From the IMG/VR virus record IMGVR_UViG_2630968533_000007, positions 1 to 42,815 of that record: a stretch of 42,815 bases of DNA; one strand, given 5' to 3'. This DNA is from a virus. Lineage: Duplodnaviria; Heunggongvirae; Uroviricota; Caudoviricetes. Made by a program: the position numbers and the translations under genes. The notes below the pieces were generated by a model. That model ran no database searches. It saw nothing but the letters and a program-made list of their open reading frames with translations, and was not told the DNA's origin. Below, piece after piece: positions 969-41,447 of the stretch (its first letter is position 1; each line of letters opens with the position of its first letter).

Positions 969-2339
969 ATGCTGAATCTTATCGTTGTCGGAACCCCCAA
1001 ATACTACACTTTTTTTTCTGAACCCAGTGGCAATGACTCTTTCCCTGTGTCGCGACTCTTCGAATCCACGCCAGAGTCTCTTAGAAGCAGATTGCTTCCC
1101 CTGACTGAAAAAACCTATCATTTTCTTCAGGAACTGCCCGTTGTATTTATGTCCGAGCCGGAAATTGAATTCGATGAAGATAATGAAAAAATAGGTTATT
1201 TCAGCCACATCCGCTTAGGAAAAATCAGCAAGATAAGTACGTCCGTGTATAACAGAGAAAAAGTTTTAGCGTTTGATTATGAGATTACCAGTGATATCGG
1301 CTACAAGCCTTTAACCAGCGATAAAGAGTACGTAAGTGAGCTGGAGCTGGGCAGTTTCGGACTAAACAGAACGTTCTGGGCGGTCAAAGAGATTTCCGTA
1401 AATGAGATTCTGCGTGTTTTAGGCCTTGAAGGCTATTCTAATGTTGAGCCCGCAGCAGCGAGTGCGGAAGCACCGGAGAATAATGAAGAACTAGAGATCA
1501 TTGCGAATATCAATCAGTACTTGCAGGTGATACTCGATCATACACAGGGAAACGATGAAGAGGTATTTTACCGCGGTCACTCGGACATCAACTACCAACT
1601 GGAACCCTCACTGTTCCGCAAGGATACTCAGGGTAACTATCGCTACCGCCATCACGAATCGGACATGATAACAGAGCTGCTGACCGTGCAGCCCGCCGAG
1701 TTCAAAGACGATCGGTATATGCTAGATAAACTCGTGCGCATGCAACACTATGGCCTACCCACACGCCTGCTTGATGTATCAACAAACCCCTTGATCGCAC
1801 TATATTTTGCCTGCTCTAAAATCAAGCACGATGAAAATAATCATGAAATTGACGGGAACGTCATTATTCTGACGACGCCCAAAAGTGAAATTAAGTTTTT
1901 CGACTCGGATACCGTAAGTTGCATAGCCAATCTTTCCCGTCTTCCCTCTCGTTTCAAAAGCAGCCTGAAAACTAATCTCACCATTCCGGCGTTTAACGAA
2001 TCTGAAGAGTGCGGACAACTACTACACCTGATCCGCGATGAAAAGTCCTATTTCAAAAGCATCATCGATCCGGTCCACCTAAGTAAAATTGTTGTGGTCA
2101 AAGGTCGGCTCAGTAACGCACGTATTTCGTCCCAATCAGGCGCTTTCCTGCTCTTTGGTGAAAACGTAGACCTACCGGAAACGGGACTCAGTACGCTGAA
2201 CATCAAAAAGCTTGTTATTAGAAACAAAGAGCATCTGATGCAGCAACTGAGCCGCCTTGGCATTAACGAAAGCACGGTGTACCCCGGCATTGAGAAGGCT
2301 GCTACGGAAATTGCAAAACTATACGATGGACGAATCTGA
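969..2339 (+). CDS. FRG-domain protein with an uncharacterised ~190-aa N-terminal region (cargo, candidate defence component)
   Basis: Motifs VFYRGHSDINYQLEPSLFR and LVRMQHYGLPTRLLDVSTNPLIALYFA match the conserved FRG-domain signature; GAGGA ribosome-binding site before the ATG at 969. Confidence 0.55.
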   Translation: MLNLIVVGTPKYYTFFSEPSGNDSFPVSRLFESTPESLRSRLLPLTEKTYHFLQELPVVFMSEPEIEFDEDNEKIGYFSHIRLGKISKISTSVYNREKVLAFDYEITSDIGYKPLTSDKEYVSELELGSFGLNRTFWAVKEISVNEILRVLGLEGYSNVEPAAASAEAPENNEELEIIANINQYLQVILDHTQGNDEEVFYRGHSDINYQLEPSLFRKDTQGNYRYRHHESDMITELLTVQPAEFKDDRYMLDKLVRMQHYGLPTRLLDVSTNPLIALYFACSKIKHDENNHEIDGNVIILTTPKSEIKFFDSDTVSCIANLSRLPSRFKSSLKTNLTIPAFNESEECGQLLHLIRDEKSYFKSIIDPVHLSKIVVVKGRLSNARISSQSGAFLLFGENVDLPETGLSTLNIKKLVIRNKEHLMQQLSRLGINESTVYPGIEKAATEIAKLYDGRI

Positions 2340-2480
2340 TAGCGCTTTAGTCGCACGGCACGCCTGTGTGCCAGCGTGGGCCCATAGCCGCTTTAATCGC
2401 CGTGCAGAATGCAGTTTTCAGGTAACTTCAGAGAAACAAGTGATCTCATTTCGTTGTATTTATTAGCTGCGGAGTCATTA

Positions 2481-3533
2481 ATGGAAAGAATCAAGAGGAA
2501 TCCCGAACGATTTGAAGCCTTTGAGCTTTTTTCCTCGTTGGGCCAGATCTATAATTACGATATTAAAAACCCCGAGCACCAGGATGACTTTATACAAAAG
2601 GTCACCACGTCATTAATCGCTTCCCATCAGAATCCAATTCTGCTGAACGGGAAAAGAATAGAAAACCTATTTAAACACGTTTGCGCCGCACTGAACCACT
2701 GCCAGTTTCTTAAACAGGAAGACGCCGGAGACTTGATGTCAGCCGATCCCGATCTGGTGGCACCTGACTATCGCATTATACTGAAGGATCGCCGTCAGAT
2801 CTTTGTGGAAGTAAAAAACTTTAACGCGGATGACGTGGCTGACGATTATCGCCTGAAGAAATCGTACAGTGATAAGGTTGAAAAGTACGGTGAGCTCCAT
2901 GGTATTCCAGTTTATTATGCCATCTACATCAGGATGCTGCGCCGGTGGGCGCTGGTTGCACGCTCCTCAATGAAGGAGCTAGAGCGTGAACATACCTTGA
3001 CGCAGGCCTCGGCGCTCGCAAAAAGTGAGATGTACCTGCTGGGCGACCTATCGATAGCAACAGAACCCGATCTGGTTTTTGAGCTTATCCCCGACCGGAC
3101 CAAAGAAGTTTCAGTTAGTCCCGAAGGCATCGCCCATTTTACAATTGGCGAGATTAAAATTTACTGCAATGACAGACAAGTAACGGATAAATTTGAAATG
3201 AACACGGCGTTTCATCTGATGCGCTACGGAGAGTGGCTCTGCCCCGGATCGGAGGCAATATTCACTGATGGTCAGCTTGAGAGCATCCGATACACATTTT
3301 CCCCGGAAGACGACGAAAATTACAAAAGACAGGGTTTCGACTTTATAGGTACGCTGAGTTCGCTGGTCACGTCGGCCTTTAACGAGCAGACTGTACACGA
3401 CAGCCAGATCAGGTCAGTTGACACCCGGCAGAATGTCAGACTTTTCACGGTAACCATCCCTGATGATTACAAAGGGGGAGGCCTGCCTCTGTGGCGTTTC
3501 TCAATGCGGCCAAACTATGAATTTACCGATTAA
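2481..3533 (+). CDS. Hypothetical protein, possible PD-(D/E)xK nuclease-like partner of the FRG protein
   Basis: Same strand, 141 bp after the FRG gene; GGAG site 6 nt before the ATG at 2481 (the open frame extends up to 2409); segment PDYRIILKDRRQIFVEVK resembles a D...ExK active-site arrangement. Confidence 0.4.
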   Translation: MERIKRNPERFEAFELFSSLGQIYNYDIKNPEHQDDFIQKVTTSLIASHQNPILLNGKRIENLFKHVCAALNHCQFLKQEDAGDLMSADPDLVAPDYRIILKDRRQIFVEVKNFNADDVADDYRLKKSYSDKVEKYGELHGIPVYYAIYIRMLRRWALVARSSMKELEREHTLTQASALAKSEMYLLGDLSIATEPDLVFELIPDRTKEVSVSPEGIAHFTIGEIKIYCNDRQVTDKFEMNTAFHLMRYGEWLCPGSEAIFTDGQLESIRYTFSPEDDENYKRQGFDFIGTLSSLVTSAFNEQTVHDSQIRSVDTRQNVRLFTVTIPDDYKGGGLPLWRFSMRPNYEFTD

Positions 3534-3820
3534 GAGTAATAGTGAGACATTTAATCGGGATAAATCGCTCGATAATTCGTTGCTACTTCAACAACTTATA
3601 AATGAGAAGACCCAGCCTAATAACCTCACAATCAACTTCATTGCGGATCCCCAAAGATAGACGGGCATAGGCGGCTTTTTATCACCTAAGCGTCAGCGCA
3701 ACATAAATGATCGGGTCAATGGAATGACCTGTTCCCCGTTAAACAACACAGATGGTTGTTAGCCACTTCCGCACTTGGCATGACTTGTCCCACCGTTTGA
3801 TACGTTACTATCTTAGTAAT

Positions 3821-3835
3821 GTCCGCTTCTGGCAC
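3821..3835. repeat. 15-bp direct repeat gtccgcttctggcac, left copy flanking the AT-rich gene 4010-4825
   Basis: Perfect 15-mer also at 4874-4888; both copies are preceded by taatg. Confidence 0.5.
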
Positions 3836-4009
3836 GAAGCTATCGTAGGTTAGGCCCAAGGACAGCTTTAAGCGAGGAGCGGACGCTGAATTCGAATTCA
3901 TCGTAAAAATTTTTATGGCCAAGTAGCTCTATAAGGCCTTTCATTAAAGCTATCTTTGTCGCAAAGCTTATGCAAAAAGTTACTTTATCTTTAAATCTAA
4001 TAAGATAAC

Positions 4010-4825
4010 ATGATTGACGAAACTCCAAAATCAACTTTACTTAAGCAAAAACGAGGCATGCAATTGAAAAAGATTAGGAAAATCAATAAAAAAATTATTG
4101 ATGAATTGCTATCTCTTCGCGAATCAAGAGGAGCTATAGAAGACTTCTCAATGTCTTTCCTACTAAATTTTGCAGAAAATTGTCGACTTATGCATTCACT
4201 TATTTCAACGAAAGATAAGAAAATAGATATTTATAAAACAGCATATCGACAATATTTTGTATTTCTAATCAGTTGCTGGGAAACATATTTTAGAGACGTT
4301 TTTGTTTTCGTGCATTCAGTTGATGAATCTAGAATTACAACACTACTATCTAAAATGAGAACAGAAACATCTATCAATATAAACACTGAGATAAATCTAT
4401 CAGAGTTATTGAGTAAAAGCTTTAACTTTCAAAACTTAAACGACCTTGAAGAAGCATATAATGGCATGTGGGGTGAGAGTTTTTTAAACTACATATGTAC
4501 AACTAATATATCTCCTTGCGGTCTGAGTGGCCAAATTTCCCAAGATTTATCGATAGAAAATATATTTCCAGACTGGAGAGCCCTCATAGAGGAAGCATTT
4601 TACATTAGGCACAAAGTGGTTCATGATGCAAACTTCAGACCTAAAGTCAACATTGAATTAATCAGTAAGGTAGAGGCTTTGTTTTTAATAATCCCACAAT
4701 TTGCAACGCATATCATATCAGAAAGATTCAACTTAAAAAAAATCGTCATTTCAGATGGTAAAAATAACCATACCTATATTTTCAATATCAGTGATATATT
4801 ATCTGATGATTGGGTTGTTAGTTGA
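4010..4825 (+). CDS. Hypothetical AT-rich cargo protein with a C-terminal R-x4-H (HEPN-like) motif
   Basis: 271-aa ORF, markedly AT-rich compared with neighbouring genes; motif RHKVVHD near the C-terminus; no canonical Shine-Dalgarno site. Confidence 0.35.
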   Translation: MIDETPKSTLLKQKRGMQLKKIRKINKKIIDELLSLRESRGAIEDFSMSFLLNFAENCRLMHSLISTKDKKIDIYKTAYRQYFVFLISCWETYFRDVFVFVHSVDESRITTLLSKMRTETSININTEINLSELLSKSFNFQNLNDLEEAYNGMWGESFLNYICTTNISPCGLSGQISQDLSIENIFPDWRALIEEAFYIRHKVVHDANFRPKVNIELISKVEALFLIIPQFATHIISERFNLKKIVISDGKNNHTYIFNISDILSDDWVVS

Positions 4826-4873
4826 TGATGGGATTGTAAGTATATTAACACAAAAAACAAAGAATCTAATGAA

Positions 4874-4888
4874 GTCCGCTTCTGGCAC
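4874..4888. repeat. 15-bp direct repeat gtccgcttctggcac, right copy
   Basis: Perfect match to 3821-3835. Confidence 0.5.
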
Positions 4889-5063
4889 ATAGCAGCCCTA
4901 GAGACAGTGGCGTAAAGTCATGGAGGATAGGTGGGAGGAGGTAAAAATCCTCTCATACAAAAATATGTAAAATCGATAACGGCTGGAAATCATTCAATAT
5001 TCGCACTATCAGAAGCTGGCCAGCCAGCCGCAGCACTTTCTTGCATACGACGAGCCTGCGGTT

Positions 5064-5618
5064 TCATTTATCTCCGACCGGAAACTTCTTATACAGTGTC
5101 GATACACCAACATCATAGATGATCGCCACCTTCTGGCGAGGAATTCCTGCTGCAATTAATCGTCCGGCCTGCGCCCATTGTTCTGGTGTAAGTTTGGGAC
5201 GACGTCCACCAATTCGTCCCTGTGCGCGAGCAGCTTCCAGTCCAGCTTTTGTTCGTTCAACAATCAGTTCACGCTCCATTTCAGCCAGGGCACCCATCAC
5301 ATGAAAGAAAAAACGCCCCATTGGTGTGCTGGTATCAATTGAATCCGTCAGACTACGAAAGTTGATGCCTCGTTCGCGCAACTCCTCCACCAACACGACA
5401 AGATGCCGCATACTACGCCCCAGCCGATCCAGCTTCCAGACAACCAGAGTGTCACCTGCCGATAATGTCCTGAGCAGTTTTTTCAGTCCCGGCCTTTCGG
5501 ACTTTGTGCCGCTTATCTTGTCTTCAAAAATCAGCTCGCATCCTGCACAGTTCAGCGCATTACGTTGTAGATCTGTGTTCTGGTCATTTGTTGATACGCG
5601 TACATAGCCAATAAGCAT
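5064..5618 (-). CDS. pin: Serine recombinase, DNA invertase of the Hin/Gin/Pin family
   Basis: MLIGYVRVSTNDQNTDLQ...VVWKLDRLGRSM...GINFRSLTDSIDTS...GRIGGRRPK is nearly collinear with Pin/Gin invertases; start taken at the internal ATG at 5618. Confidence 0.93.
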   Translation of the reverse strand: MLIGYVRVSTNDQNTDLQRNALNCAGCELIFEDKISGTKSERPGLKKLLRTLSAGDTLVVWKLDRLGRSMRHLVVLVEELRERGINFRSLTDSIDTSTPMGRFFFHVMGALAEMERELIVERTKAGLEAARAQGRIGGRRPKLTPEQWAQAGRLIAAGIPRQKVAIIYDVGVSTLYKKFPVGDK

Positions 5619-5672
5619 GGTAGATCCCCCTGACAAAAGCAGGAATGATGCCATTTGCTCGTTATTTCTGCA

Positions 5673-5698
5673 TTTTCATAAACGTTGGTTTGGGAGAA
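5673..5698. promoter_or_regulatory. Invertase crossover site (gix/hix-like), left
   Basis: ttttcataaacgttggtttgggagaa; in inverted orientation to 7541-7566 (21 of 26 positions, last 14 identical); resembles the hix/gix consensus. Confidence 0.75.
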
Positions 5699-6037
5699 GC
5701 GGCTAAAAGGAATGTAGGGACAGGGGCGAATCAGATACCTGATATGGGTAGCTTCACGCTTTCTGTTTCAGGTACTGGATATCAAAAATTACCATCAGGT
5801 TTTATTCTTCAGTGGGGCTCAATCGGCGCTCCAGGCATTGCACAGGATGTAGTAACCCATTTCCCAATTGCATTTCCAAACAGATGTCTGCGTGTTTTGG
5901 TCTCACAAGACTATACACCAGATAGCGGGGCTGTTGGTTATATTGCCTGTGCAGGTTTTAGTCCCGACCCGGTTAAATTTATATCCAGAGCCAGTACTCC
6001 TGGCCTCGGCGCTTCATTTTTAGCGTTAGGCTGTTAA
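5699..6037 (+). CDS. Alternative tail-fibre C-terminal module, promoterless, expressed only after inversion
   Basis: Frame runs through the crossover site encoding ...NVGLGE, matching ...ENLGLGE at the crossover inside the active tail-fibre gene. Confidence 0.55.
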
Positions 6038-6058
6038 TTTAGCTATATGGAGTGAAAA

Positions 6059-6499
6059 ATGAATTACATATATTCCGCGACTACAAACTCTTTCTATCCG
6101 CTGGAGATGAAAGAGGATTACACTCAAGCTGACTCATGGCCAGATGATGCTGTTGAAGTTGATGAGCAAGTGTATATTGAGTTTTCCGGATTACCGCCGA
6201 AAGGAAAAATCCGTATCGCTGGAGAAAATGGTTTTCCTGCATGGTCCGAAATTCCACCACCAACACATGAGGAACAAATTGCTGCAGCCGAACTGGAGAA
6301 GCAGCAATTGATTAATCAGGCCAACGATTATATGAACAGTAAACAATGGCCTGGTAAAGCGGCTATTGGTCGTCTGAAAGGTGACGAACTGGCGCAATAT
6401 AATTTGTGGCTGGATTACCTGGACGCACTGGAACTGGTCGATACTTCCGGTGCGCCAGATATTGAATGGCCTACGCCTCCGGCAGTTCAGGCCAGATGA
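6059..6499 (+). CDS. Tail-fibre assembly protein (alternative copy in the invertible segment)
   Basis: C-terminus ...LWLDYLDALELVDTSGAPDIEWPTPP parallels the other copy; GGAG site before the ATG. Confidence 0.75.
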   Translation: MNYIYSATTNSFYPLEMKEDYTQADSWPDDAVEVDEQVYIEFSGLPPKGKIRIAGENGFPAWSEIPPPTHEEQIAAAELEKQQLINQANDYMNSKQWPGKAAIGRLKGDELAQYNLWLDYLDALELVDTSGAPDIEWPTPPAVQAR

Positions 6500-7073
6500 C
6501 ATCCGGCGCGGTGCTCGTATCTGTTGCCGTCACCGCGTCAATGTAATCCAGCACAGCGTTAAGTCGGGTGGTTTCTGCCTGCGTCAGCTTCCGCCCGGCC
6601 TGCAATTTCAGTTGAATCAGACTGATGGAAGCCATTGCAGTATCAATCAGTGACTGACGCTGTGCTTCTGCCGCGTCTACTGCGGCGCTATGCTGTGCCT
6701 CAGTATCGGTCACCCATTTCTTACCATCCCATTTATCGAATGGCGTTAACGGGGCGATAGTGGTTGTATTTTCAGGATAATCACCCGGAGCTGTGATTTC
6801 TTTGGCGTCTCCCGTTTCGGTGTTATAGACGATTTCACCGCGATGGTCTGGCACATATTCCCATGAGTTTAAATCCATCGAACGGCAGATAGCATAACCC
6901 GCCTTATGTATACCAGGTTCATCCAGACAGGAATATGCAGGGATACCGACACCAATGGCAAGATATTCATTTGAAGTAGAAATATATTCCCGAGTTTTAC
7001 CATCATAGTTATAGACGGTAATATTCCCCGCCTTCGTGGCAATAAGCTCGCTATTTAATACGGCGTTATCCAT
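6471..7073 (-). CDS. Tail-fibre assembly protein (copy in the expressed orientation)
   Basis: Follows the tail-fibre gene; C-terminal ...LDYIDAVTATDTSTAPDVIWPELPEA is the typical assembly-protein tail. Confidence 0.8.
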   Translation of the reverse strand: MDNAVLNSELIATKAGNITVYNYDGKTREYISTSNEYLAIGVGIPAYSCLDEPGIHKAGYAICRSMDLNSWEYVPDHRGEIVYNTETGDAKEITAPGDYPENTTTIAPLTPFDKWDGKKWVTDTEAQHSAAVDAAEAQRQSLIDTAMASISLIQLKLQAGRKLTQAETTRLNAVLDYIDAVTATDTSTAPDVIWPELPEA

Positions 7074-7843
7074 TATGCAGCCCTCACGATATAGTTAAAT
7101 GCAATATTTCGTGGACGGGTTTCACTCCCGCCAGTATTACCGATACTCCCTCGTGAATGAAGTGTCGGTGATGGGATCAGACTCCCTCCTGTATTTGCGG
7201 CATCAAGTCCCCGTCCTTGTGTGTATGTCTTTTTGAAAATCGTAGCCAGTTCCCATTCATCTTTTGTGTCGTAACCATCATTGGCAACAACAATATGGCG
7301 GTGTTTTTCCAGCATCCCTGTCTGAATGCTCAATAAAACACGTCCTGCATCAATACCGCGCCCGTCATCCCAGCCACGAATAAACTCACCACGTAAATCA
7401 GGCAATTTATTTGTCGGATAAGCCTTTGCCAGTTCCGGGTATTCTTCAGCAGAAAAAGCCGCACCGTTGCATTTCAGCCAGCCTGTTGGCGGTGTGGCTG
7501 AAGGCCATGGAACAGGCACACCAACAGGTAATGCAGAGCCTTCTCCCAAACCAAGGTTTTCGAGAGCTGTTTTCACGGTGCCATCCGATTTGATATCGCC
7601 AAACGGATTCTTGCGGCTTAACAGCAGCGCACGAAGCGCGGTAAGCAGCTGGTCGTGCCTCCCCTTCTCCAGGCTGGCACCGGATGCCTCCACCACGCCA
7701 CAAAGCTCTTCCTGCAACATGTCAAAGTAGTCATCATCCAGATCGGTGGCAGGCGTGCCGGTCTGGGGGTTACCACGGGTAAAACCGTTCTTACCCGCGC
7801 CGAACTTATCCTTCTGCGCGGTTTTCGTGTCTATACGATGCAT
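7073..7843 (-). CDS. Tail-fibre protein: constant N-terminus plus invertible variable C-terminus
   Basis: Crossover site 7541-7566 lies about 92 codons into the gene; glycine-rich fibre-like C-terminal part. Confidence 0.75.
7541..7566. promoter_or_regulatory. Invertase crossover site (gix/hix-like), right, inside the tail-fibre gene
   Basis: ttctcccaaaccaaggttttcgagag, close to hixL ttcttgaaaaccaaggtttttgataa. Confidence 0.75.
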
Positions 7844-7846
7844 GGA

Positions 7847-8431
7847 TTACTCCGGATATTTAAAAATTACGTAGGTATGCGACGGGCAGAGTTTGTTAAG
7901 CACACATTCGACAACGGTGTCCCCCCAGATACGCAGTGCGGAATCGCAGGGGTCGCCACATGTCATCCAGGTGGTGTTGGTGGCGGCTGGCATGTTGACC
8001 TGCCAGTAATACCGCCATTCCGGCGCATTCACCGCGTCAGTACAGACCGATGAGCAGGTGAACGTGCTTTTGTCGTATCGCGTGATGGTGGCGTCTGGTC
8101 TGCCCAGGGCAGCAAGCTGTGCAAGGTAAAAATCCTCATTGATGCCGCCCGCTAGGTTAACCTTCGCATCCAGTCGTTGCTGACGCTGGCGAAGGGTCTG
8201 TGTCCCTGCGGGAATACATTCATCCGGCAGGCCGCACAGACGCTCCCAGCGATTTATCAGTTCGGTGGTGGTGCGCGGATCCAGCTCCCGCATCAGGGCA
8301 TCCGCACGCTGATGAACGCGAGTTAATGACGGTGCCGCACCGGCAATCGCCGGATCGCTGGCTGACCACGCCGGACCGGGAGGCAACAGTGCCGACAACA
8401 GATGGATGTAATCATCGTTTGTCACGTCCAT
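7847..8431 (-). CDS. Tail/baseplate protein (Mu gp48-like)
   Basis: Position between the baseplate J-like gene and the tail fibre; gene order of a Mu-like tail module. Confidence 0.5.
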
Positions 8432-9480
8432 GAAATCGTCCCCAGTACCGCCAGTTCATTTTTTGCAATGGAGATATTGTCCGCCGGTGCAAGCAACTGA
8501 TGGCTGTATTCCCCGTTCGCACCGGAAATCGCCTCACTGATACGCGACACCTTCAGTTCTCCCTGCGGATAACCATCACGCAGCAGGAACGAACGCAACT
8601 CGGCGGTGATGGCAGCCCGTATTTCCGGTGTGTCCGGCGTCACGCGGATATGAAAATCCACTTTATGCGCCACCGGCCTGAATACATACAAATCAGAGCC
8701 TGCCACCGGGGCCAGTGGCTCAATGTGTTGTCTTGCCGCCGTTTCCGTTGATTCTTCCGGAATGGGATTAATCAGGTCACTGCTGGCAATCATCACACCG
8801 ACAGTCCCCGTTCCCATCCAGTGGCGGTATGTCCATGCACGGGTAATGCCTGGCACTTCTTTAGCCCAGACAACATAGTCCCCGTCAGCCCCGCCCTGAG
8901 GCGTCCAGTAATACCGCTCAATGACGCGGGCGCGCCACGTTTCCAGCTCTTCAGTATCAAATCCACCTGTCAGAGTGTCTGCCACGCCGGAAGACGGCAG
9001 ACCATTCACCGGCGTGACCAGGATTAATGACGTACCGTCGTCAGCGTTACCGACCGCGCCTGCACTTGAGCAGGCGATCGGCACGCGCAGGACACCACCG
9101 GAGCTGGTTGCATCGGCAGTTGCCGTGTACTGAACCAGGTCATCGCGCTGAATAACACTCCCGGCGGTCACCTTCAGGCCATCGCTGACACCTTCCCAGC
9201 GCATATACCCGCTGGCAGCCGTGGCCCCCTTGCGCGGACACCGTTTCATCGCAGCATGTCGCGCCAGCCAGGACTCATCGCACAGGTCAGGCAGCATGTT
9301 CATTGCCAGATAATCGATGTAACCGTAAACCGTATGCAGCGCCGCCGCATACACCTTTGCCCGCACGTCTTCATCCATGCGCCGGAGCGTGTCGCTGACG
9401 TCCAGCCTGGCGAATAAATCGTTACGGAGCATACTGATATTTTCTGCCAGCGTCGGGCGCTGAAATTCACTGTCCGCCAT
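8422..9480 (-). CDS. Baseplate J-like protein (Mu gp47-like)
   Basis: 352 aa; order and size fit a baseplate wedge protein. Confidence 0.7.
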
Positions 9481-27746: not shown

Positions 27747-28799
27747 TTATTTCCCCACCAGTTCACTTACCTCTTTCACCGTCTGATTAAACCGCTCTGA
27801 CTCAAGTTCAACACCTAACGCCCGACGTCCCAGCGCCATTGCTGCTTTTATTGTGGAACCGGATCCCATAAAAAAATCAGCAACCAGATCACCTGGTCGA
27901 CTACTGGCATTGATTATTTGCCGGAGCATATCCGCAGGCTTCTCACACGGATGTTTACCCGGGTAGAACTGAACGGGTTTATGCGTCCAGACGTCGGTAT
28001 AAGGCACGGAAACTGATACGGAGAAATAGCGCCGGAGAGTTTTAAACTCATCCAGCAATTCAGAATATTTGCGATTCAGTGAATCATAAGATGCCACCAG
28101 CTGGTGGTGTGGTTGTTCCAGTTGTTGTTCCTGAAACTTCTCTGCCGCTATACGGGAAAACAGTGCCTGTAACTTCCGATAGTCAGCCTCATTCGGCAAC
28201 TGCCACTGACTGGCACCAAACCAGTGGGAAACCATATTTTTCTTACCTGTGGCTTCGGCAATTTGTTTTGCCGTTATACCCAGTTCGGCACGAGCATCCC
28301 TGAAATACGATATCAGCGGTGCCATTATGTGCTGTTTGAGTTCCCTTTCTTTTGCCGCATAGCCGTCACTTTTGCCGCGATATGGCCCCTGGTAATGTTC
28401 AGCAAACAGAACGCGCTCTGTGGCAGGAAAATATGCGCGCAGACTTTCTTTATTACACCCATTCCAACGTCCGGACGGCTTCGCCCAGATGATATTGTTA
28501 AGCACGTTGAAACGTTCACGCATCATGATCTCAATATCAGATGCCAGGCGATGCCCACAGAACAGGTAAAGGCTTCCGGCAGGTTTCAACACCCGCCAGA
28601 ACTGGGCCAGACAGTGGTCCAGCCACTTAAGGTAATCTTCGTCCCCTTTCCACTGATTGTCCCAACCGTTGGGTTTCACCTTGAAGTAAGGCGGATCGGT
28701 AACAATCAGGTCAATGGAATCATCAGGCAGGGACTGAATAAAATGCAGGCAATCAGCGTTGATTAAATCAACACTGTTTATTTTTACAGTATTTTTCAT
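27747..28799 (-). CDS. DNA methyltransferase (N6-adenine/N4-cytosine, beta class), orphan
   Basis: DPPY motif near the N-terminus and FMGSGST AdoMet motif near the C-terminus; no adjacent restriction gene. Confidence 0.8.
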   Translation of the reverse strand: MKNTVKINSVDLINADCLHFIQSLPDDSIDLIVTDPPYFKVKPNGWDNQWKGDEDYLKWLDHCLAQFWRVLKPAGSLYLFCGHRLASDIEIMMRERFNVLNNIIWAKPSGRWNGCNKESLRAYFPATERVLFAEHYQGPYRGKSDGYAAKERELKQHIMAPLISYFRDARAELGITAKQIAEATGKKNMVSHWFGASQWQLPNEADYRKLQALFSRIAAEKFQEQQLEQPHHQLVASYDSLNRKYSELLDEFKTLRRYFSVSVSVPYTDVWTHKPVQFYPGKHPCEKPADMLRQIINASSRPGDLVADFFMGSGSTIKAAMALGRRALGVELESERFNQTVKEVSELVGK

Positions 28800-29472: not shown

Positions 29473-30492
29473 TTGGATAAGTTTGATGAGATTCATGTAG
29501 ACATTGAATCTGAGCAGCAAGCCTTCGATTTGCTTGAAAGCTATCTTGATGGTTATGGTTTACCTGACAGTTTAAGTTTCAACGGATGGCCAAACCTTAC
29601 CATCAGATTAACCGGTGAAAAATTCAACAGATCGCTAACACCTTCAGTTATGAAGGGATTTGTTGAAATGCAAGCTCAAATCAACAAATCATATGCCCTT
29701 GCCAAGTACGGTGTCCCTGACGTCCGCAAACTGACCAAAGAAGAACTTGATGCCCTAGAAATAGAAGTTACGGTAGAACAGGGTTCTTCAATAGTAGAAA
29801 TCAACATTGATGGCTTTTTAACCAAACTCACACAGGAACTTGTTGGTAAAATGAACGCAACTGAGATCATGTTTACTGTTCTCGGCGCAGCAGTCATCTG
29901 GGGCGGAGTAACAGTATTTAAACGGTTCTTGGACAACCGTAAAGATATTCGCCTTGCAGAAATTGCTAAGGATGGAGAGAAAGAACATCTCCGGACTATG
30001 CAGATCATGAGCGAGCAAGAAACTAAACGCCTGCGGGTTATTTCAGAAATGATTGCGGAAAAACCACTTCTCGATAACATGGACCGTATGTCGTATGACG
30101 CTAAAACCCAAATGGTCAAATCCTTTGTGCGTTCAGATAACGCTCAAATTGATGGCGTTACTATTGATTCTGAAATGGCGAAAGAGTTGGTTACGAATGC
30201 TCGTAGACGTTCATCAGAAATGAGGATTGATGGTATTTACCGAATTGAAGAAGTCAATAATACTGACCCAGAGAGTTTCAAAGTTAAGGTCCGACGCGTA
30301 GATACCGACCAACGTCTAACCTGCGTAGTTCAGGATGTTTTCCTTGATGAATCCGGAAACAAAGAAGCATTGCAGCGAGCTGAGTGGGAAAGAAAGCCTG
30401 TACATTTGAGCATTAACGCAAAACACGTCGATGGTGACATTAAGTCAGCAGTAATTCTCTATGTTCGAGATGTGGAACAAAAGCCCGAGTAA
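29473..30492 (+). CDS. Hypothetical single-pass membrane protein (cargo between Q and the late operon)
   Basis: 339-aa ORF with TTG start 7 nt after GAGGA; one hydrophobic helix (IMFTVLGAAVIWGGVTVF); convergent with Q. Confidence 0.5.
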   Translation: MDKFDEIHVDIESEQQAFDLLESYLDGYGLPDSLSFNGWPNLTIRLTGEKFNRSLTPSVMKGFVEMQAQINKSYALAKYGVPDVRKLTKEELDALEIEVTVEQGSSIVEINIDGFLTKLTQELVGKMNATEIMFTVLGAAVIWGGVTVFKRFLDNRKDIRLAEIAKDGEKEHLRTMQIMSEQETKRLRVISEMIAEKPLLDNMDRMSYDAKTQMVKSFVRSDNAQIDGVTIDSEMAKELVTNARRRSSEMRIDGIYRIEEVNNTDPESFKVKVRRVDTDQRLTCVVQDVFLDESGNKEALQRAEWERKPVHLSINAKHVDGDIKSAVILYVRDVEQKPE

Positions 30493-33105: not shown

Positions 33106-33428
33106 ACTTTCAGGTCCCTCTCATGTAACCAGTGGGTTGCACGCAGCCTTGCGTTTTCCTCACCGGCAAGCAGTGCGCGGATAATCCCGACCGCCTCGCT
33201 GTCGTCGTCCTTCACCGCGGTATGAAGCGTTATCCCCCGGGCCACGCCACGCTTTATCGTGATGACGCCTTTTTTCTCCAGTGCGCGAAGATGCTCCACC
33301 GCTGCATTCACCGAACGGTATCCCAGCATGGTTGCCACCTCCTGATTGGTTGGCGGGAAGCCACGTTCTTTCTGATAAGAAATCAGCATATCCAGCACCT
33401 GCTGCTGGCATTGAGTTAACGTCGTCAT
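33102..33428 (-). CDS. LexA-N-terminal-like winged-helix DNA-binding protein
   Basis: QQQVLDMLISYQKERGFPPTNQEVATMLGYRSVNAAVEHLRALEKKGVI resembles the LexA DNA-binding domain; ATGA start/stop overlaps on both sides. Confidence 0.55.
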   Translation of the reverse strand: MTTLTQCQQQVLDMLISYQKERGFPPTNQEVATMLGYRSVNAAVEHLRALEKKGVITIKRGVARGITLHTAVKDDDSEAVGIIRALLAGEENARLRATHWLHERDLKV

Positions 33429-34078
33429 GCCGCCATCTCCCTGACCAGTTTTTCCGCCTGCTGGCGAACCTGCGCCAGAAACGCCTCACCACATGCCTCA
33501 AGTTCATCGCGCCCGATGTAGCTGATTGCCGGTCCCTTCCAGGTCTTGTCGAAAACAGCAATAGCACCAGCGAAGAAAGCTCCTGTCGGCACCTGCTTCT
33601 CATCCTTCGGGATAAACCAGGCAGGCAGTTCAAAACCAATACGCCCGCGAATAAAAGCAATATGATCTGCATCTTCCGGCCACCACACTTCGCTGGTGGC
33701 AGCTTTGATCAGGAAAACATAGCGCCCGCCTTTATCACGCATGGCACTGGCATGCTTCATGATGTAACGCATGCCGGTGATGTATTGCCCCTCATGCTGA
33801 CTGGCGCGGCTGTATGGGGGATTACCAAAGGCAGCACCTTTAAGCTCCGCAAGACGTTCTGACCAGTCATGCGCCAGCGCGTTGTCTTCCGCCGTGTAAT
33901 ACGCGGCACATTTGGCGTTATCACCGTCAGTGAACAGATCCAGAACAAACGGACCAAACAGGGTGTTAATTCCCCAGAAAATGTTATCCGGCGTGCGCCA
34001 CTGATCGCCCACTTCCTTCAGTTCATGGGCTGGTTTGTTCCGCAGTTCCACCAGCGTCTGGCAATATTTATTACTCAT
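33425..34078 (-). CDS. Phage N6-adenine DNA methyltransferase (Dam-like), orphan
   Basis: NPPY motif (FGNPPYSRA); start taken at the ATG at 34078 overlapping the upstream stop. Confidence 0.75.
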   Translation of the reverse strand: MSNKYCQTLVELRNKPAHELKEVGDQWRTPDNIFWGINTLFGPFVLDLFTDGDNAKCAAYYTAEDNALAHDWSERLAELKGAAFGNPPYSRASQHEGQYITGMRYIMKHASAMRDKGGRYVFLIKAATSEVWWPEDADHIAFIRGRIGFELPAWFIPKDEKQVPTGAFFAGAIAVFDKTWKGPAISYIGRDELEACGEAFLAQVRQQAEKLVREMAA

Positions 34079-34566
34079 TAAGCCCCCACGTAATTCCCTG
34101 ACAGATACCACTCTTCACCCGATGCAGCGCGCTTGCTGCTTTTCCGTAAGCACCGCTCACGACGCGCCAGAAAATTGTTTCGTTCTGGCTGGGAGTGGCT
34201 TTCACGGAATGCCGCCATCCACACGGTTGCAGCACGACGGTATAAGCCCCTGGACTCCAGTTCTTCCGCCTGGCTGGTCAGGCACAAAATCACACGGGGA
34301 TCGTTAGTGCCGACATAGAAATTGCGCACAGGTCTGGTTTCACGAACTGGTTGTGGTTCCGGTTCCTGCGCTCTCTCAGTCAGGCGCGGGAAATGTCTGC
34401 GTGTATCTCCTTCACAACGGTGAGCCACACGCCCACTCTGACGTAACTTGCTTGCTGACTGCAGAACGCGCTGCCGTGAGTAACCGGCAAAAGCATCCGC
34501 AATATCTCCGGAAGTACAGCCCGGATGGGCTTCAATGAATTTCTGAACGTCATTCAAAAGACTCAT
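34078..34566 (-). CDS. Hypothetical early protein, possible small transcriptional regulator
   Basis: ATG 4 nt after the replication-gene stop; RGLYRRAATVWMAAF segment may resemble PerC/ANR-type regulators (weak). Confidence 0.35.
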   Translation of the reverse strand: MSLLNDVQKFIEAHPGCTSGDIADAFAGYSRQRVLQSASKLRQSGRVAHRCEGDTRRHFPRLTERAQEPEPQPVRETRPVRNFYVGTNDPRVILCLTSQAEELESRGLYRRAATVWMAAFRESHSQPERNNFLARRERCLRKSSKRAASGEEWYLSGNYVGA

Positions 34567-35858: not shown

Positions 35859-36463
35859 GCGTTAGTTTCTCCACAGTCACGACACGCCACGGCGCCCGGA
35901 GCTGCACACTCGCGGGCGTCATTACTTTCTGAAATGCAAAAGATTTTGTAGACCAGTGCTGCATGCTCCTGCAGCTTCGAAATTGAGAGATACAGCTCGT
36001 CGTTAATTGCTGTCTTCTCATGCGGTTCCACCACACCGTCTTCGATTGCCGAACGAATCTGTCTGGAATAACTGCCAATCTGTTCAATGACTTCCAGCAG
36101 GCGCTGGTTAATATCGGCGTTGTCCACATCCTCGACGTCAGGAAGAGACACAAAGACGCCATTTGCAGACTGCGCCACAGCGTCAGCAATGAAGTGAGTT
36201 CCACCAGCACGTTGCAAAATCATTGCCCATCCCAGCGGGAAAATCTGATCGCCATCGGCACGAAGGCGGTTAAATAATGCGTTTTCTGTTACATCCAGCC
36301 AGTCAGCTGCTTCAGCGTAACCACCCGGCAACGCTGCGATAGTTTTTCTGACAGCTTTCACGTACCACTCAGGCTGTTTTTCTACTTTCCAGTGATGCTT
36401 ACCCACGGTTAGCCTCATCGTTCTGTGGTTTCTGTTAATCGATTTATCCATTAGATTTTTCAT
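35855..36463 (-). CDS. Hypothetical early protein at the cII position (possibly YdaT-like)
   Basis: Immediately downstream of cro in the rightward early operon; start uncertain (open frame extends to 36520). Confidence 0.35.
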
Positions 36464-36644
36464 AAAGCTCAGGTTTAAATGGCAACCGTCCGCAAGTTCT
36501 ATATGCAGCTTCTGCTGCACGTCCTTTTGGAATTAACTGGCCCGGACGGTTTCGCCACTGATAAACGGCTTCAGTTGTTATGCCGAAAAAAGCAGCAACT
36601 TTCTCAATACTGCCGAAGTAGCTTTCGATATCGTCAGTTGTCAT
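36444..36644 (-). CDS. cro: Cro-like repressor (helix-turn-helix)
   Basis: 66 aa with HTH segment IEKVAAFFGITTEAVYQW; divergent from cI across the operator region; GGAGG site before the ATG. Confidence 0.7.
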   Translation of the reverse strand: MTTDDIESYFGSIEKVAAFFGITTEAVYQWRNRPGQLIPKGRAAEAAYRTCGRLPFKPELYEKSNG

Positions 36645-36656
36645 ACGCCCTCCAAG

Positions 36657-36719
36657 CTAAGTTTTATTAGATGCTAATTACAAATCTATCTTTGGTCAAT
36701 AAAAACTAAGATTACTTAG
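36657..36719. promoter_or_regulatory. Right operator/promoter region: inverted repeats of the CTAAG half-site
   Basis: ctaag-tttt-attag (36657-36670) and ctaag-atta-cttag (36706-36719) between divergent cI and cro. Confidence 0.5.
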
Positions 36720-36741
36720 CAATTCAAGAAATGGTGCTCCT

Positions 36742-37368
36742 ATGGAAACGGTTGGTCAGCGTATAAAAGCTCTGAGAAGAGTTACCGGAACGTCCCAGAA
36801 AGAATTGGGTAAATTTTGTGGAGTAAGCGACGTTGCTGTGGGGTACTGGGAGAAAGACATCAATACCCCTGGTGGGGAGGCACTTTCGAAATTAGCGAAG
36901 TTCTTCAATACGTCAATAGATTACATTCTTTATGGTGCTGAGTTTGAAGGCAAACTCGTCACAAACATGCGCAGAGTTCCTGTAATATCGTGGGTTCAGG
37001 CTGGGCAGTTTACTGAGTGCAGGGCAGCAGAAGTGTTTAGTGAAGTGGACAAGTGGGTAGATACATCATTAAAGATTGGTGATAACTCATTTGCATTAGA
37101 GGTTAAAGGTGACTCCATGACTAACCCTAATGGCCTCCCAACAATACCAGAAGGCGCAACAGTGATTGTAGATCCAGATGCAGAACCTCGTCATGGAAAA
37201 ATAGTCATCGCTCGACTTGATGGAACAAACGAAGCTACAGTAAAAAAATTAGTCATCGATGGCCCTCAAAAGTTTTTAGTGCCATTAAATCCTCGGTATC
37301 CCAACATCCCTATCAATGGTAATTGCCTTATCATTGGTGTAGTCAAAGGAGTTCAATACGAACTCTAA
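36742..37368 (+). CDS. cI: CI-like repressor (N-terminal HTH, C-terminal LexA-type S24 autopeptidase)
   Basis: HTH QKELGKFCGVSDVAVGYWE; C-terminal ...EVKGDSM...GKIVIARL...KKL with Ser/Lys dyad spacing. Confidence 0.85.
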   Translation: METVGQRIKALRRVTGTSQKELGKFCGVSDVAVGYWEKDINTPGGEALSKLAKFFNTSIDYILYGAEFEGKLVTNMRRVPVISWVQAGQFTECRAAEVFSEVDKWVDTSLKIGDNSFALEVKGDSMTNPNGLPTIPEGATVIVDPDAEPRHGKIVIARLDGTNEATVKKLVIDGPQKFLVPLNPRYPNIPINGNCLIIGVVKGVQYEL

Positions 37369-37615
37369 GACCTCTCTTCTCTAACTAAGGCACCGAACTA
37401 AGAAAAGTTTGGTGTTTTCTCTTGCCATAATAACTAAGTTAAGTTAGATTTTATATCAAAGATAACGAACAGGCAGGACGCCCACGAAGTAGCCGCCTGG
37501 GGCATATAAAGTCTAGGGTGATTCGTTAGCAACAAAAAAGCACCCTACAGGACGCTTAGCTCTTTAACAATCTGGTCCCCATCAACAAGTAACTGATAAC
37601 TTGAGGAGGTGTGAA

Positions 37616-37822
37616 ATGCACAAAACAGAACCCAAAATCGTCGCGCCCGGATACACAAATGAGGAAATTTACGAGTGGATGGCAAAGAAGCTGGCAGCTA
37701 TAAACCAGCTTCGTGAAGTGCTGTCTTATCGACAGGAAACAATAGACTCCTTAAAAAAACTGGATCAGGAAATCACGGTTTTATCACAGGATGTTACTTT
37801 AGATATTGTGCAGACAAATTAG
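37616..37822 (+). CDS. Small hypothetical protein, first gene of the leftward early operon
   Basis: Strong GAGGAGG site 6 nt before the ATG at 37616. Confidence 0.45.
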   Translation: MHKTEPKIVAPGYTNEEIYEWMAKKLAAINQLREVLSYRQETIDSLKKLDQEITVLSQDVTLDIVQTN

Positions 37823-38228
37823 GATCCCATTCATTTTCGTCAAAATCATCAAAGTGATGAATTTGTGATCTCCAGTCTCGATAATCTAAAAATTTCTGGG
37901 CGGTTACGCTTATTTTATCAAGTGTGAGTTCATCCTGAATTGAAAGAAGAAGTTCATCAAATTTCATCTCATTAATCTGTTTTGGCATCCAGTGATGCTT
38001 CATCAGAATAAGGTGAACCAGAGCCTTTTTCCCATTCAACTGATTATAGGGAGTGCCGAATTTCTTCCGGTGCTCATGTAAGACAAGGTCCAGAAGAGTA
38101 AGTAATGTTGCCCTTGATTCCACTTTGCTTATTTCGACTGATGACACTACTCCACTGATTTCAATGCCCCGATACTTTCCAACATTTTCACAGTGGGATT
38201 TGTACAGCGTGTAGATATTACCGGACAT
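37794..38228 (-). CDS. Hypothetical AT-rich protein, reverse-oriented cargo gene in the immunity-proximal region
   Basis: 144-aa ORF convergent with and overlapping the 3' end of the preceding small gene; direct repeats immediately upstream. Confidence 0.45.
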   Translation of the reverse strand: MSGNIYTLYKSHCENVGKYRGIEISGVVSSVEISKVESRATLLTLLDLVLHEHRKKFGTPYNQLNGKKALVHLILMKHHWMPKQINEMKFDELLLSIQDELTLDKISVTAQKFLDYRDWRSQIHHFDDFDENEWDPNLSAQYLK

Positions 38229-38243
38229 TTCTTTTCCTTTTGC

Positions 38244-38295
38244 GTTGTTGGGGATAACCAGATTAACCGAATCCTTGTTGTTGGGGAATAACCAG
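38244..38295. repeat. Two direct repeats gttgttgggg(a)ataaccag upstream of the 144-aa gene
   Basis: 38244-38261 and 38277-38295; a third degenerate copy near 38361-38385. Confidence 0.55.
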
Positions 38296-38559
38296 GTCCA
38301 CCTCGCCTGATGTGGCTAAAAGCAGGCACATAACAGCTAAGTATTTTTAACCAGAGAGAATCCTTAGCGTTGTGGTGAATGCGGCTCAGCGCACGCGGGT
38401 TAAGGTTGAGGCTGACAGTCGACCTTCTGTGGATACCCACCCGTCTGGTGTGCAACCTTCGCCAGGCACCGGGAGGCACCCGGCACCACAACTTTATGCT
38501 GTGTGTAGTCCTGGAGGTACCAGTTTGTACCCTTGCTTCCGGCTGGTACCGTCCTTTTT

Positions 38560-41357: not shown

Positions 41358-41371
41358 CTTATTGATTTTAA

Positions 41372-41447
41372 TGGTGCCGATAATAGGAGTCGAACCTACG
41401 ACCTTCGCATTACGAATGCGCTGCTCTACCAACTGAGCTATATCGGC
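41372..41447 (-). tRNA. thrW: tRNA-Thr (anticodon CGU)
   Basis: Minus-strand sequence gccgatatagctcagttggtagagcagcgcattcgtaatgcgaaggtcgtaggttcgactcctattatcggcacca folds as a cloverleaf with CGT anticodon and encoded CCA. Confidence 0.92.

Follow-up and report, generated by a model that had tools for sequence, protein, structure and literature searches.

A Pin-type invertible tail-fibre segment in an SfV-like prophage of Escherichia coli and its two naturally occurring orientations

The window analyzed here, a 42,815-nt stretch of DNA from a virus of the Caudoviricetes, carries a gene for a site-specific DNA invertase next to a tail-fibre gene and a second, unexpressed fibre C-terminus. This raises the question of whether the locus is a switch that alternates between two tail fibres, a switch that has ceased to operate, or a set of repeats that only resembles one. 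It appears very probable that the locus is a two-state, Pin-catalyzed inversion switch of the e14 P-segment type, located in a complete SfV-like temperate myovirus prophage. The switch is regarded as real but ordinary, since its biology is already known, and its importance beyond correct annotation is slight.

Invertase, crossover sites, and fibre modules

The features of the locus are listed below with their window coordinates and strand.

5064-5618, minus strand: pin, a serine DNA invertase of the Hin/Gin/Cin/Pin family, 184 aa, named pinE in the RefSeq annotation
5529-5600, minus strand: presumed Fis-dependent recombinational enhancer at nt 19-90 of pin, near its 5′ end, assigned by homology only
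5645-6037, plus strand: free-standing CDS of 130 aa called by PGAP, which contains module B and starts in the pin-pix spacer
5673-5698, no strand: pin-proximal 26-bp crossover site (pix), TTTTCATAAACG-TT-GGTTTGGGAGAA, central dinucleotide 5685-5686
5687-6037, plus strand: module B, the unexpressed alternative fibre C-terminus with a gp53-like tip, residues 98-213 of the fibre after inversion
6059-6499, plus strand: gene of the module-B fibre-assembly protein, which is TfaP-like and has 146 aa (Caudo_TAP, E=1.5e-37), unexpressed in the present orientation
6471-7073, minus strand: gene of the module-A fibre-assembly protein TfaE, which has 200 aa (Caudo_TAP, E=3.9e-33), in the expressed orientation
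7073-7553, minus strand: module A, the currently expressed variable fibre C-terminus, StfE-like, with a Collar-domain tip (Pfam Collar, E=1.7e-15)
7073-7843, minus strand: tail-fibre gene (ORF) in its present form, 256 aa
7541-7566, no strand: fibre-internal 26-bp crossover site, TTCTCCCAAACC-AA-GGTTTTCGAGAG, central dinucleotide 7553-7554, codon Leu97
7555-7843, minus strand: constant N-terminal fibre part outside the segment, sharing 96% identity with the K-12 StfP N-terminus

Pin has the characteristics of the Hin/Gin/Cin/Pin (Din) group of small serine recombinases, namely an N-terminal catalytic domain (residues 3-135, Pfam Resolvase PF00239, E=1.4e-51), a C-terminal HTH domain (residues 138-180, HTH_7 PF02796, E=3.6e-15), and a length within the range of about 180-195 aa. 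The catalytic Ser9 is located within GYVRVSTNDQ, a motif that is identical in Gin, Cin, and PinE, and two crystal structures of Gin, 3uj3 (E=3.7e-94) and 4m6f (E=9.4e-93), match residues 1-181. The protein is identical to K-12 PinE at 180 of 184 positions (98%), to P1 Cin at 153 of 186, and to Mu Gin at 145 of 193. Relative to the active PinE, Pin has four substitutions; all are conservative, and at least two of them restore residues found in Gin or Cin. With regard to NCBIfam, no equivalog was found above threshold for Pin, the fibres, or the chaperones, and matches to large serine recombinases were sub-threshold. A longer ORF of 196 aa, which reaches position 5654, is pin read from an upstream in-frame ATG.

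Nucleotides 1-130 of pin are identical to K-12 pinE, and nucleotides 19-90 agree with the annotated enhancer of P1 cin at 57 of 72 positions and with the same stretch of Mu gin at 55 of 72. This similarity suggests that inversion by Pin may depend on Fis and an enhancer, which would be separated from the closer of the two crossover sites by about 120 bp. A 54-bp spacer separates the start of pin from the pin-proximal site, and a sigma-70 promoter scan of this spacer found none for pin or for the ORF initiated there. Across positions 4800-8600, the totals of sigma-70 promoters and terminators were no higher than those in shuffled controls.

In each crossover site, two 12-bp half-sites flank a 2-bp core (a 12-2-12 dyad). 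As an inverted pair, the two sites agree at 21 of 26 positions, and they share an inverted repeat with a 20-nt core (5680-5699 and 7540-7559) that is 95% complementary. A search of the whole 42.8-kb window with the hix/gix/cix consensus (18 specified positions, up to four mismatches) returned exactly these two sites, each with one mismatch, whereas shuffled sequences gave a mean of 0.17 sites per search; for the exact 26-mer with up to three mismatches, the chance expectation was 0.00. No further crossover sites, such as those of a multi-state, shufflon- or Min-like system, were detected in the window at up to four mismatches to the consensus, and because the window holds only two sites, the switch has two states. 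Both sites are identical at all 26 positions to the pix sites of K-12 e14 (one proximal to pin and the other inside stfP), and their architecture is that of the annotated cix sites of P1 and of the gix sites at the G-segment boundaries of Mu.

Measured from central dinucleotide to central dinucleotide, the invertible segment comprises 1,870 bp (5685-7554). The right-hand site occupies codons 93-101 of the fibre gene, and the crossover TT falls in Leu97. Inversion in silico at the central dinucleotides yields an uninterrupted fibre ORF of 213 aa with the gp53-like tip; because both segment ends also encode GLGE, the first 101 aa are common to the 256-aa and 213-aa fibres. Module A shares 61% identity with the variable region of K-12 StfE and matches the fibre tip of T4 gp37 (2xgf, E=1e-17), while module B covers the entire Gp53-like_C profile of Pfam (positions 1-84 of 84, E=1.6e-14) and shows weak matches to solved tail-fibre tips of pyocins and phages. 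The two tips differ in fold or family (Collar/T4 gp37-like versus gp53-like/pyocin-fibre-like) and are likely to bind different receptors. The module-A chaperone, annotated as tfaE, is 88.5% identical to K-12 TfaE, and that of module B shows 61% identity to K-12 TfaP across 102 aligned positions; the two tfa genes are convergent and overlap by 29 bp. No frameshifts are present, and the invertase, the two sites, the two modules, and the two chaperones are all intact.

A first-pass annotation, made from the DNA alone, had described most of this arrangement correctly: a Hin/Gin/Pin-family invertase gene beside a segment of "~1.9 kb" bounded by inverted 26-bp hix/gix-like sites, one of them "about 92 codons" into the fibre gene; and, for each orientation, its own C-terminus and assembly protein. 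It had also proposed that the reading frame is kept in both orientations, which is borne out by the 213-aa ORF, and that the junction reads ENLGLGE in one orientation and NVGLGE in the other, which is not the case. The expressed fibre carries ENLGLGE in either orientation, and NVGLGE arises only when a reading frame enters the unexpressed module from the pin-pix spacer through the pin-proximal site.

Host prophage and both orientations in natural genomes

The host element is a complete SfV-like prophage of about 41 kb, integrated in tRNA-Thr (thrW) beside proA. Its att sequences form an exact repeat of 48 bp (382-429 and 41370-41417), the second copy of which lies inside tRNA-Thr(CGT), and its gene set includes integrase, head, tail, lysis, and regulatory genes. 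Pfam matches to a PF05065 capsid, an S78 prohead protease, and a portal protein support the HK97-type head of the first-pass annotation. Additional matches to Mu Gp48 and baseplate J, together with annotated homologues of sheath, tube, and gp44-47, indicate a Mu-type baseplate. The genes adjoining pin encode an FRG-domain protein and two unnamed ORFs. In E. coli strain B2, the region 4800-8500 is 100% identical, and the window as a whole aligns with 99.6% identity over its first 36 kb and has an unaligned portion at ~36.4-38.3 kb, which points to a close relative of the strain B2 prophage from a different strain.

The inverted allele was computed by reverse-complementing positions 5685-7554 of the window and used as a query. 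Three other complete E. coli genomes contain all 3,170 nt of it (100% coverage) at 100% identity, and the flanking prophage proteins there have the same WP accessions; in one flipped strain, WP4-S18-ESBL-09, the fused 213-aa fibre is annotated as WP_102833754.1. Both orientations of the exact sequence thus occur in nature. In the flipped alleles, the mismatched positions 5684 and 7555 remain with their own flanks, and the crossover is therefore bounded to the identical 15-nt stretch 5685-5699, which contains the central TT. These natural alleles show that inversion at the central dinucleotides has taken place in the past in this lineage; since the copies in other strains are 100% identical apart from the flip, the inversion was probably recent. 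The first-pass annotation had named a single orientation and a truncated invertase as the outcome that would speak against a switch; instead, the inverted allele is present in three genomes, and the invertase is of full length and retains its catalytic serine.

A related copy is also found in either orientation in O157:H7 genomes. In a set of 5,426 E. coli genomes, the two types of junction are each frequent, with 512 and 381 genomes; these counts include fixed, invertase-less fibres sharing the B-type junction (e.g., SfV) and do not represent an orientation ratio.

Proposed mechanism and alternative readings

In the proposed mechanism, Pin dimers would bind the two inverted 26-bp sites and form an invertasome with the Fis-bound enhancer in the 5′ end of pin. 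Pin would then cut the 2-bp central core, and rotation of the subunits followed by religation would leave the 1,870-bp segment flipped. The late tail operon is predicted to run from the baseplate genes through the constant 97-codon fibre N-terminus into whichever segment end faces it, giving the 256-aa Collar-type fibre and TfaE in the present orientation and the 213-aa gp53-like fibre and its TfaP-like chaperone in the opposite one. A population of lysogens would consequently produce two kinds of virion that differ in adsorption specificity. The outcome presumed from the analogous Mu and P1 systems is an alternation of receptor specificity or host range, and switching is also presumed to occur in this particular strain. 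Inversion could also be driven in trans by further Pin paralogues of this chromosome, as reported for PinQ and PinR with the e14 segment (PMC12529663), and Pin need then not be the sole or the main catalyst.

It is also conceivable that the switch mainly serves the lysogen, with fibre-derived products masking outer-membrane receptors and blocking the adsorption of other phages. In K-12, inversion of e14, driven by PinQ or PinE, was reported to create StfE2 and StfP2, and StfE2 lowers the adsorption of T2 (Kirigo et al. 2025, PMC12529663). The orientation of the window corresponds to the "inverted" state of that study (PMC12529663), and the short ORF at 5645-6037 (130 aa), which runs from a start in the spacer into the silent module, is the positional equivalent of e14 StfE2; it is called as a CDS by PGAP, and its N-terminus was compared with that of the K-12 counterpart. 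However, the C-terminal domain is distant from that of K-12 StfP, with a whole-protein identity of 57.6% that includes the 96%-identical constant part and an estimated identity of about a quarter in the tip. Because the tip is only distantly related, the T2-blocking property is not transferable. The ORF also has no promoter-like site upstream and has AGGA 0-3 nt from two ATGs, a poor spacing for a ribosome-binding site, and the silent module of Mu receives a similarly extended call, in which Mup52 runs 28 nt beyond the G boundary; its start codon may thus be incidental. Since the prophage is complete, a host-range role of the virion is the simpler explanation, and a switch serving mainly the lysogen is considered unlikely. 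A double role, in which receptor alternation of the virion is combined with toggling, in the lysogen, of a free receptor-binding domain fused to a leader (ORF 5645-6037 in the present orientation) that masks a surface receptor and excludes other phages, a function recently claimed for e14 StfE2, is judged quite unlikely. If true, it would make this end of the prophage, with the adjacent FRG/PDC-S15 and HEPN-like cargo, a phase-variable defence locus. The locus offers an intact-phage background for the claim that products of P-segment inversion protect the host from other phages (PMC12529663).

Two further readings deny that the locus is a switch in operation. Defective members are numerous among the E. 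coli prophages of this group, e14 being one of them, and SfV shows a fixed arrangement without an invertase; the switch could accordingly be a fossil that flipped in the past and is now locked or irrelevant in a prophage that is no longer inducible. This is highly improbable in view of the intact state of Pin (with its conservative substitutions relative to active PinE), sites, modules, and chaperones, the full prophage gene set and intact att repeats, and the recent inversion indicated by identical copies elsewhere. The repeat partly encodes the same (L)GLGE peptide at both segment ends, and conservation at the protein level is possible, which might suggest chance or coding-driven similarity and no recombination site at all. 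The probability of this reading is vanishingly small, as the repeat has a chance expectation of essentially zero, reaches into the non-coding pin-pix spacer, and has the cix/gix dyad design, with sites identical to those of e14. An origin by chance or coding alone is refuted by the natural alleles, which are flipped precisely at the sites.

Comparison with e14, Mu, P1, and the SfV group

The inversion switch had been regarded as established biology in the first-pass annotation, and this assessment is upheld: all of its elements are homologous to the e14 P-segment system, and the combination of an HK97-type head with a Mu-type tail is known from the SfV group (PMC3851460). In e14, the gene order is the same (ymfQ - fibre - tfa - tfa' - fibre' - pin), and the tfa genes are likewise convergent with a 29-bp overlap. 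Phase variation of the e14 segment was reported in clonal K-12 cultures (PMC4272514), as were a rise of its inverted fraction upon overproduction of PinE (PMC12529663) and its inversion in trans by PinQ and PinR (PMC12529663). The segment is 1,870 bp long here and was reported as 1,797 bp in e14 (PMC12529663), and its orientation in the window is opposite to that in the MG1655 reference. The e14 tips are other alleles, the StfE-like tip being 61% identical and the StfP-like tip only distantly related. Moreover, e14 is a 15-kb defective element in icd with mcrA as the cargo beside pin, whereas the element described here, a prophage of 41 kb, is complete, occupies thrW, and has the FRG-domain gene and two unnamed ORFs in that position.

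The e14 P-segment switch, which is usually studied in a defective element, is found fully intact in a complete SfV-like prophage, and both of its states are represented among natural isolates with the same prophage. Gene callers turn the unexpressed module into a separate "gp53-like" CDS, and the accession of the fibre varies with orientation; comparative and pangenome work should count such annotations as one phase-variable locus.

The Mu G segment with Gin and the P1 C segment with Cin follow the same logic, with a constant fibre N-terminus outside the segment, two C-termini and their chaperones inside, and the invertase gene adjoining. Their 26-bp gix and cix sites share the consensus found here, Gin and Cin are 75-82% identical to Pin, and the P1 enhancer is annotated at the same position within the invertase gene. 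However, their segments are larger (3.0 kb in Mu according to the annotated G boundaries, and 4.2 kb in P1), and their fibres are much longer. The gix sites have TC/GA as their core dinucleotide, whereas cix and the sites described here have TT/AA. P1 cin points towards and overlaps cixL, while pin points away from its site, and the rest of both phages is unrelated to the window except for the Mu-like baseplate.

The SfV-group phages SfV, SfI, SfII, and SfIV share about 97% nucleotide identity with the window over baseplate J, gp48/YmfQ, and the constant fibre N-terminus, and this homology ends exactly at the crossover site (7540). They likewise have an HK97-family head and integrate in thrW beside proA (PMC3851460). 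The SfV fibre gene contains one orphan 26-bp site, identical to the fibre-internal site of the window, and its variable part starts like module B. In contrast to the window, SfV has a single fixed tip with one chaperone and neither an invertase nor a second site, and it carries gtrABV as cargo where the window has pin, FRG, and other genes.

Organization of the inversion locus

The locus very probably represents an invertasome-type inversion system that switches the fibre tip and its chaperone; by the classical mechanism, invertasome-mediated inversion would change which tip and which chaperone the late operon expresses, and two virion types would result. The first-pass annotation had described a Pin/Gin-type host-range switch of the tail fibre with both C-terminal modules intact; the present analysis confirms this observation and supports its interpretation. 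In the features listed here, module A is the fibre C-terminus joined in the present orientation and module B the unexpressed alternative.

Features of the switch region
5064-5618, minus, pin, 184 aa; resolvase-type catalytic domain (PF00239, E=1.4e-51) and resolvase HTH (PF02796, E=3.6e-15)
5673-5698, pin-proximal 26-bp site, TTTTCATAAACG-TT-GGTTTGGGAGAA
to 6037, plus, module B continuation from the left-hand site, 117 codons; Gp53-like_C, 1-84 of 84 profile positions (E=1.6e-14)
6059-6499, plus, Caudo_TAP assembly protein of module B, 146 aa
6471-7073, minus, Caudo_TAP assembly protein of module A, 3′ of the fibre, 200 aa
7073-7843, minus, tail fibre in the present orientation, 256 aa
7541-7566, fibre-internal 26-bp site, TTCTCCCAAACC-AA-GGTTTTCGAGAG
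7847-8431, minus, Mu gp48/YmfQ homologue
8422-9480, minus, baseplate J

Pin is identical to PinE of e14 (the defective K-12 prophage carrying the P segment) at 180/184 positions, and the four substitutions are all conservative. It also resembles P1 Cin (153/186 identical) and Mu Gin (145/193), and Gin crystal structures (3uj3/4m6f) match its residues 1-181 (E about 1e-94). A 196-aa ORF reaching 5654 is the same frame with merely an upstream ATG; the identical copy in RefSeq, named pinE, starts at the Met of MLIGYVRVST. The first 130 nt of pin are identical to K-12 pinE, and nt 19-90 match the annotated P1 cin enhancer at 57 of 72 positions and the equivalent Mu gin stretch at 55 of 72.

A repeat finder located a 20-nt inverted repeat (5680-5699/7540-7559, 95% complementary) 54 bp upstream of the pin start. 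Both 26-bp sites have a 2-bp core flanked by two 12-bp halves of imperfect symmetry, and as an inverted repeat the pair matches at 21/26 positions. The same 12-2-12 design is found in the annotated P1 cixL/cixR and at the annotated Mu G-segment boundaries, with an AAACC-NN-GGTTT centre common to all of them, and both sites are identical (26/26) to those of K-12 e14. When the 42.8-kb window was scanned with a consensus of the Mu, P1, and e14 sites (18 specified positions, up to 4 mismatches), these two sites were the only places found, with 1 mismatch each, which indicates a two-state switch. Shuffled sequences gave a mean of 0.17 sites with this consensus, and 0.00 were expected by chance for the exact 26-mer with 3 mismatches allowed; a chance repeat is therefore excluded.

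Alternative fibres and evidence for inversion

The tail late genes lie on the minus strand in the order baseplate J, Mu gp48/YmfQ homologue, and fibre. The right-hand site occupies fibre codons 93-101, with its central TT within Leu97. The part of the fibre past the site contains a phage tail Collar domain (E=1.7e-15) and has a match in the receptor-binding tip region of T4 gp37 (2xgf, E=1e-17). Reverse-complementing 5685-7554 in silico yields an unbroken 213-aa fibre whose residues 1-101 are identical to those of the present 256-aa fibre, and both modules are therefore intact, as proposed. The frame is also kept in both orientations, but the predicted contrast of ENLGLGE versus NVGLGE does not hold: both expressed forms read ENLGLGE because GLGE is encoded at both segment ends, and NVGLGE arises from reading into the unexpressed module from the pin-pix spacer (between pin and the pin-proximal site). 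We infer from the unrelated tip folds, and by analogy with Mu and P1, that the two tips differ in receptor. The 3′ ends of the convergent chaperone genes share 29 bp (6471-6499), exactly like those of tfaP and tfaE in e14, and a nearby inverted repeat (6409-6426/6535-6552) derives from the C-terminal LDY(L/I)DA motif common to both.

In K-12 MG1655, e14 has the same order as the window: ymfQ, stfP, tfaP, tfaE (inverted), stfE′ (inverted), pinE, and mcrA. Judged by sequence, the variable modules of the window are alleles of those of e14: module A shares 61% identity with the variable part of StfE, and its chaperone 88.5% with TfaE, whereas the relation of module B to the StfP tip is only distant and the module B chaperone shares 61% identity with TfaP across 102 aligned positions.

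A 3,170-nt query spanning pin to ymfQ and flipped in silico matched the complete genomes of three E. coli strains (WP4-S18-ESBL-09, 4973, and TOE3) in one piece with 100% identity and coverage, while the window orientation across the switch has a 100% match in strain B2 (NZ_CP082327.1). WP4-S18-ESBL-09 and B2 share the RefSeq accessions for pinE, YmfQ, baseplate J, the tape measure protein, and three cargo genes, and in the former the 213-aa fusion is annotated immediately 3′ of ymfQ. The mismatched positions 5684 and 7555 remain with their own flanks in natural flipped alleles, so the exchange must have fallen within 5685-5699, a stretch of 15 identical bases that includes the central TT. A related copy (about 94% identity) occurs in O157:H7 genomes in either orientation. 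These data show that, at the level of this prophage lineage, the switch design is functional and has recently operated; detection of a single orientation, which would have spoken against the proposal, is not what public genomes contain, and a fossil or locked switch is very improbable. For e14, published work leads to the same conclusion: whole-genome sequencing together with PCR revealed phase variation of its segment in clonal K-12 cultures (PMC4272514), and the inverted form makes up about 30% of a wild-type culture, rising to about 49% upon PinE overproduction, while the segment is locked in pinE pinQ mutants (PMC12529663).

An additional role might be considered for the ORF at 5645-6037. 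Inversion in e14 is reported to yield StfE2, a short spacer-encoded leader joined to the other tip, and StfE2 to block T2 adsorption (Kirigo et al. 2025, PMC12529663). The window orientation corresponds to the StfE2-producing state, and the 130-aa ORF is the StfE2 counterpart with a near-identical leader. However, its tip is a different allele from that of e14, neither a promoter-like site nor a well-spaced ribosome-binding site can be seen for it, the silent Mu module receives the same kind of extended ORF call, and the prophage in the window is complete, so that a block of phage adsorption by this product appears unlikely.

PGAP annotates unexpressed module B as this free-standing 'gp53-like domain-containing protein' (5645-6037, plus), with its ATG in the pin-pix spacer. 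Module A is likewise annotated alone in flipped strains, as a 172-aa 'phage tail protein', and one phase-variable locus thus has four protein accessions. S′ is similarly a separate extended ORF in the Mu RefSeq record.

Host prophage and the SfV group

The prophage ends are marked by a 48-bp exact direct repeat (382-429/41370-41417; about 64 bp with few mismatches), the right copy being the 3′ part of tRNA-Thr(CGT) (thrW; 41372-41447, minus), which adjoins proA. The intervening region of about 41 kb encodes integrase, immunity, replication, Q antiterminator, and lysis functions, together with terminase, portal, S78 protease, HK97-family capsid, sheath, tube, tape measure, and a Mu-like baseplate. 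The switch had correctly been described as joined to an HK97-type head and as established biology, being an e14-type Pin/P-segment that is intact and lies in an SfV-like prophage. This combination is the normal build of a known phage group and no new chimera: the SfV group is HK97-headed and integrates at thrW (PMC3851460). The kind of system, the pinE annotation in RefSeq, and both orientations in public genomes were already known. The position of thrW beside proA is that of SfV-group integration.

SfV, SfI, SfII, and SfIV share about 97% nucleotide identity with the window rightwards from exactly 7540 (constant fibre part, ymfQ, and baseplate J) but are unrelated to it leftwards, so the fibre-internal site coincides with a mosaic joint. 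The SfV fibre gene has a single orphan site (L008:4501-4535), 26/26 identical to the fibre-internal one, with one module-B-like tip and one chaperone but neither invertase nor second site; gtrABV occupies the place of pin and the other cargo. Such orphan sites might serve as substrates in trans for Pin from other prophages.

The window is 99.6% identical to the B2 prophage over the first 36 kb, with no alignment reported for about 36.4-38.3 kb (~36430-38300, immunity/early region); it therefore comes from a strain other than B2, with a mosaic relative of the B2 prophage.

Between the att repeat and pin, the prophage carries three cargo genes on the plus strand, in a position held by mcrA in e14 and gtrABV in SfV; the region next to the invertase looks like a defence-type moron hotspot. 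Two methyltransferases, annotated as DNA-methyltransferase and phage N-6-adenine methyltransferase, and an unnamed ORF lie elsewhere in the prophage.

Cargo and other prophage genes
within 969-4825, plus, cargo 1, 456-aa FRG-domain protein; PADLOC candidate defence family PDC-S15 (E=8e-99)
within 969-4825, plus, cargo 2, 374-aa ORF (PGAP: 350 aa), no family match
within 969-4825, plus, cargo 3, 271 aa; sub-threshold RiboL-PSP-HEPN match (26.4 bits, cut-off 28.4)
27747-28799, minus, methyltransferase
33425-34111, minus, methyltransferase
29473-30492, plus, unnamed ORF, 339 aa; opposite to its neighbours, between methyltransferase and Q antiterminator
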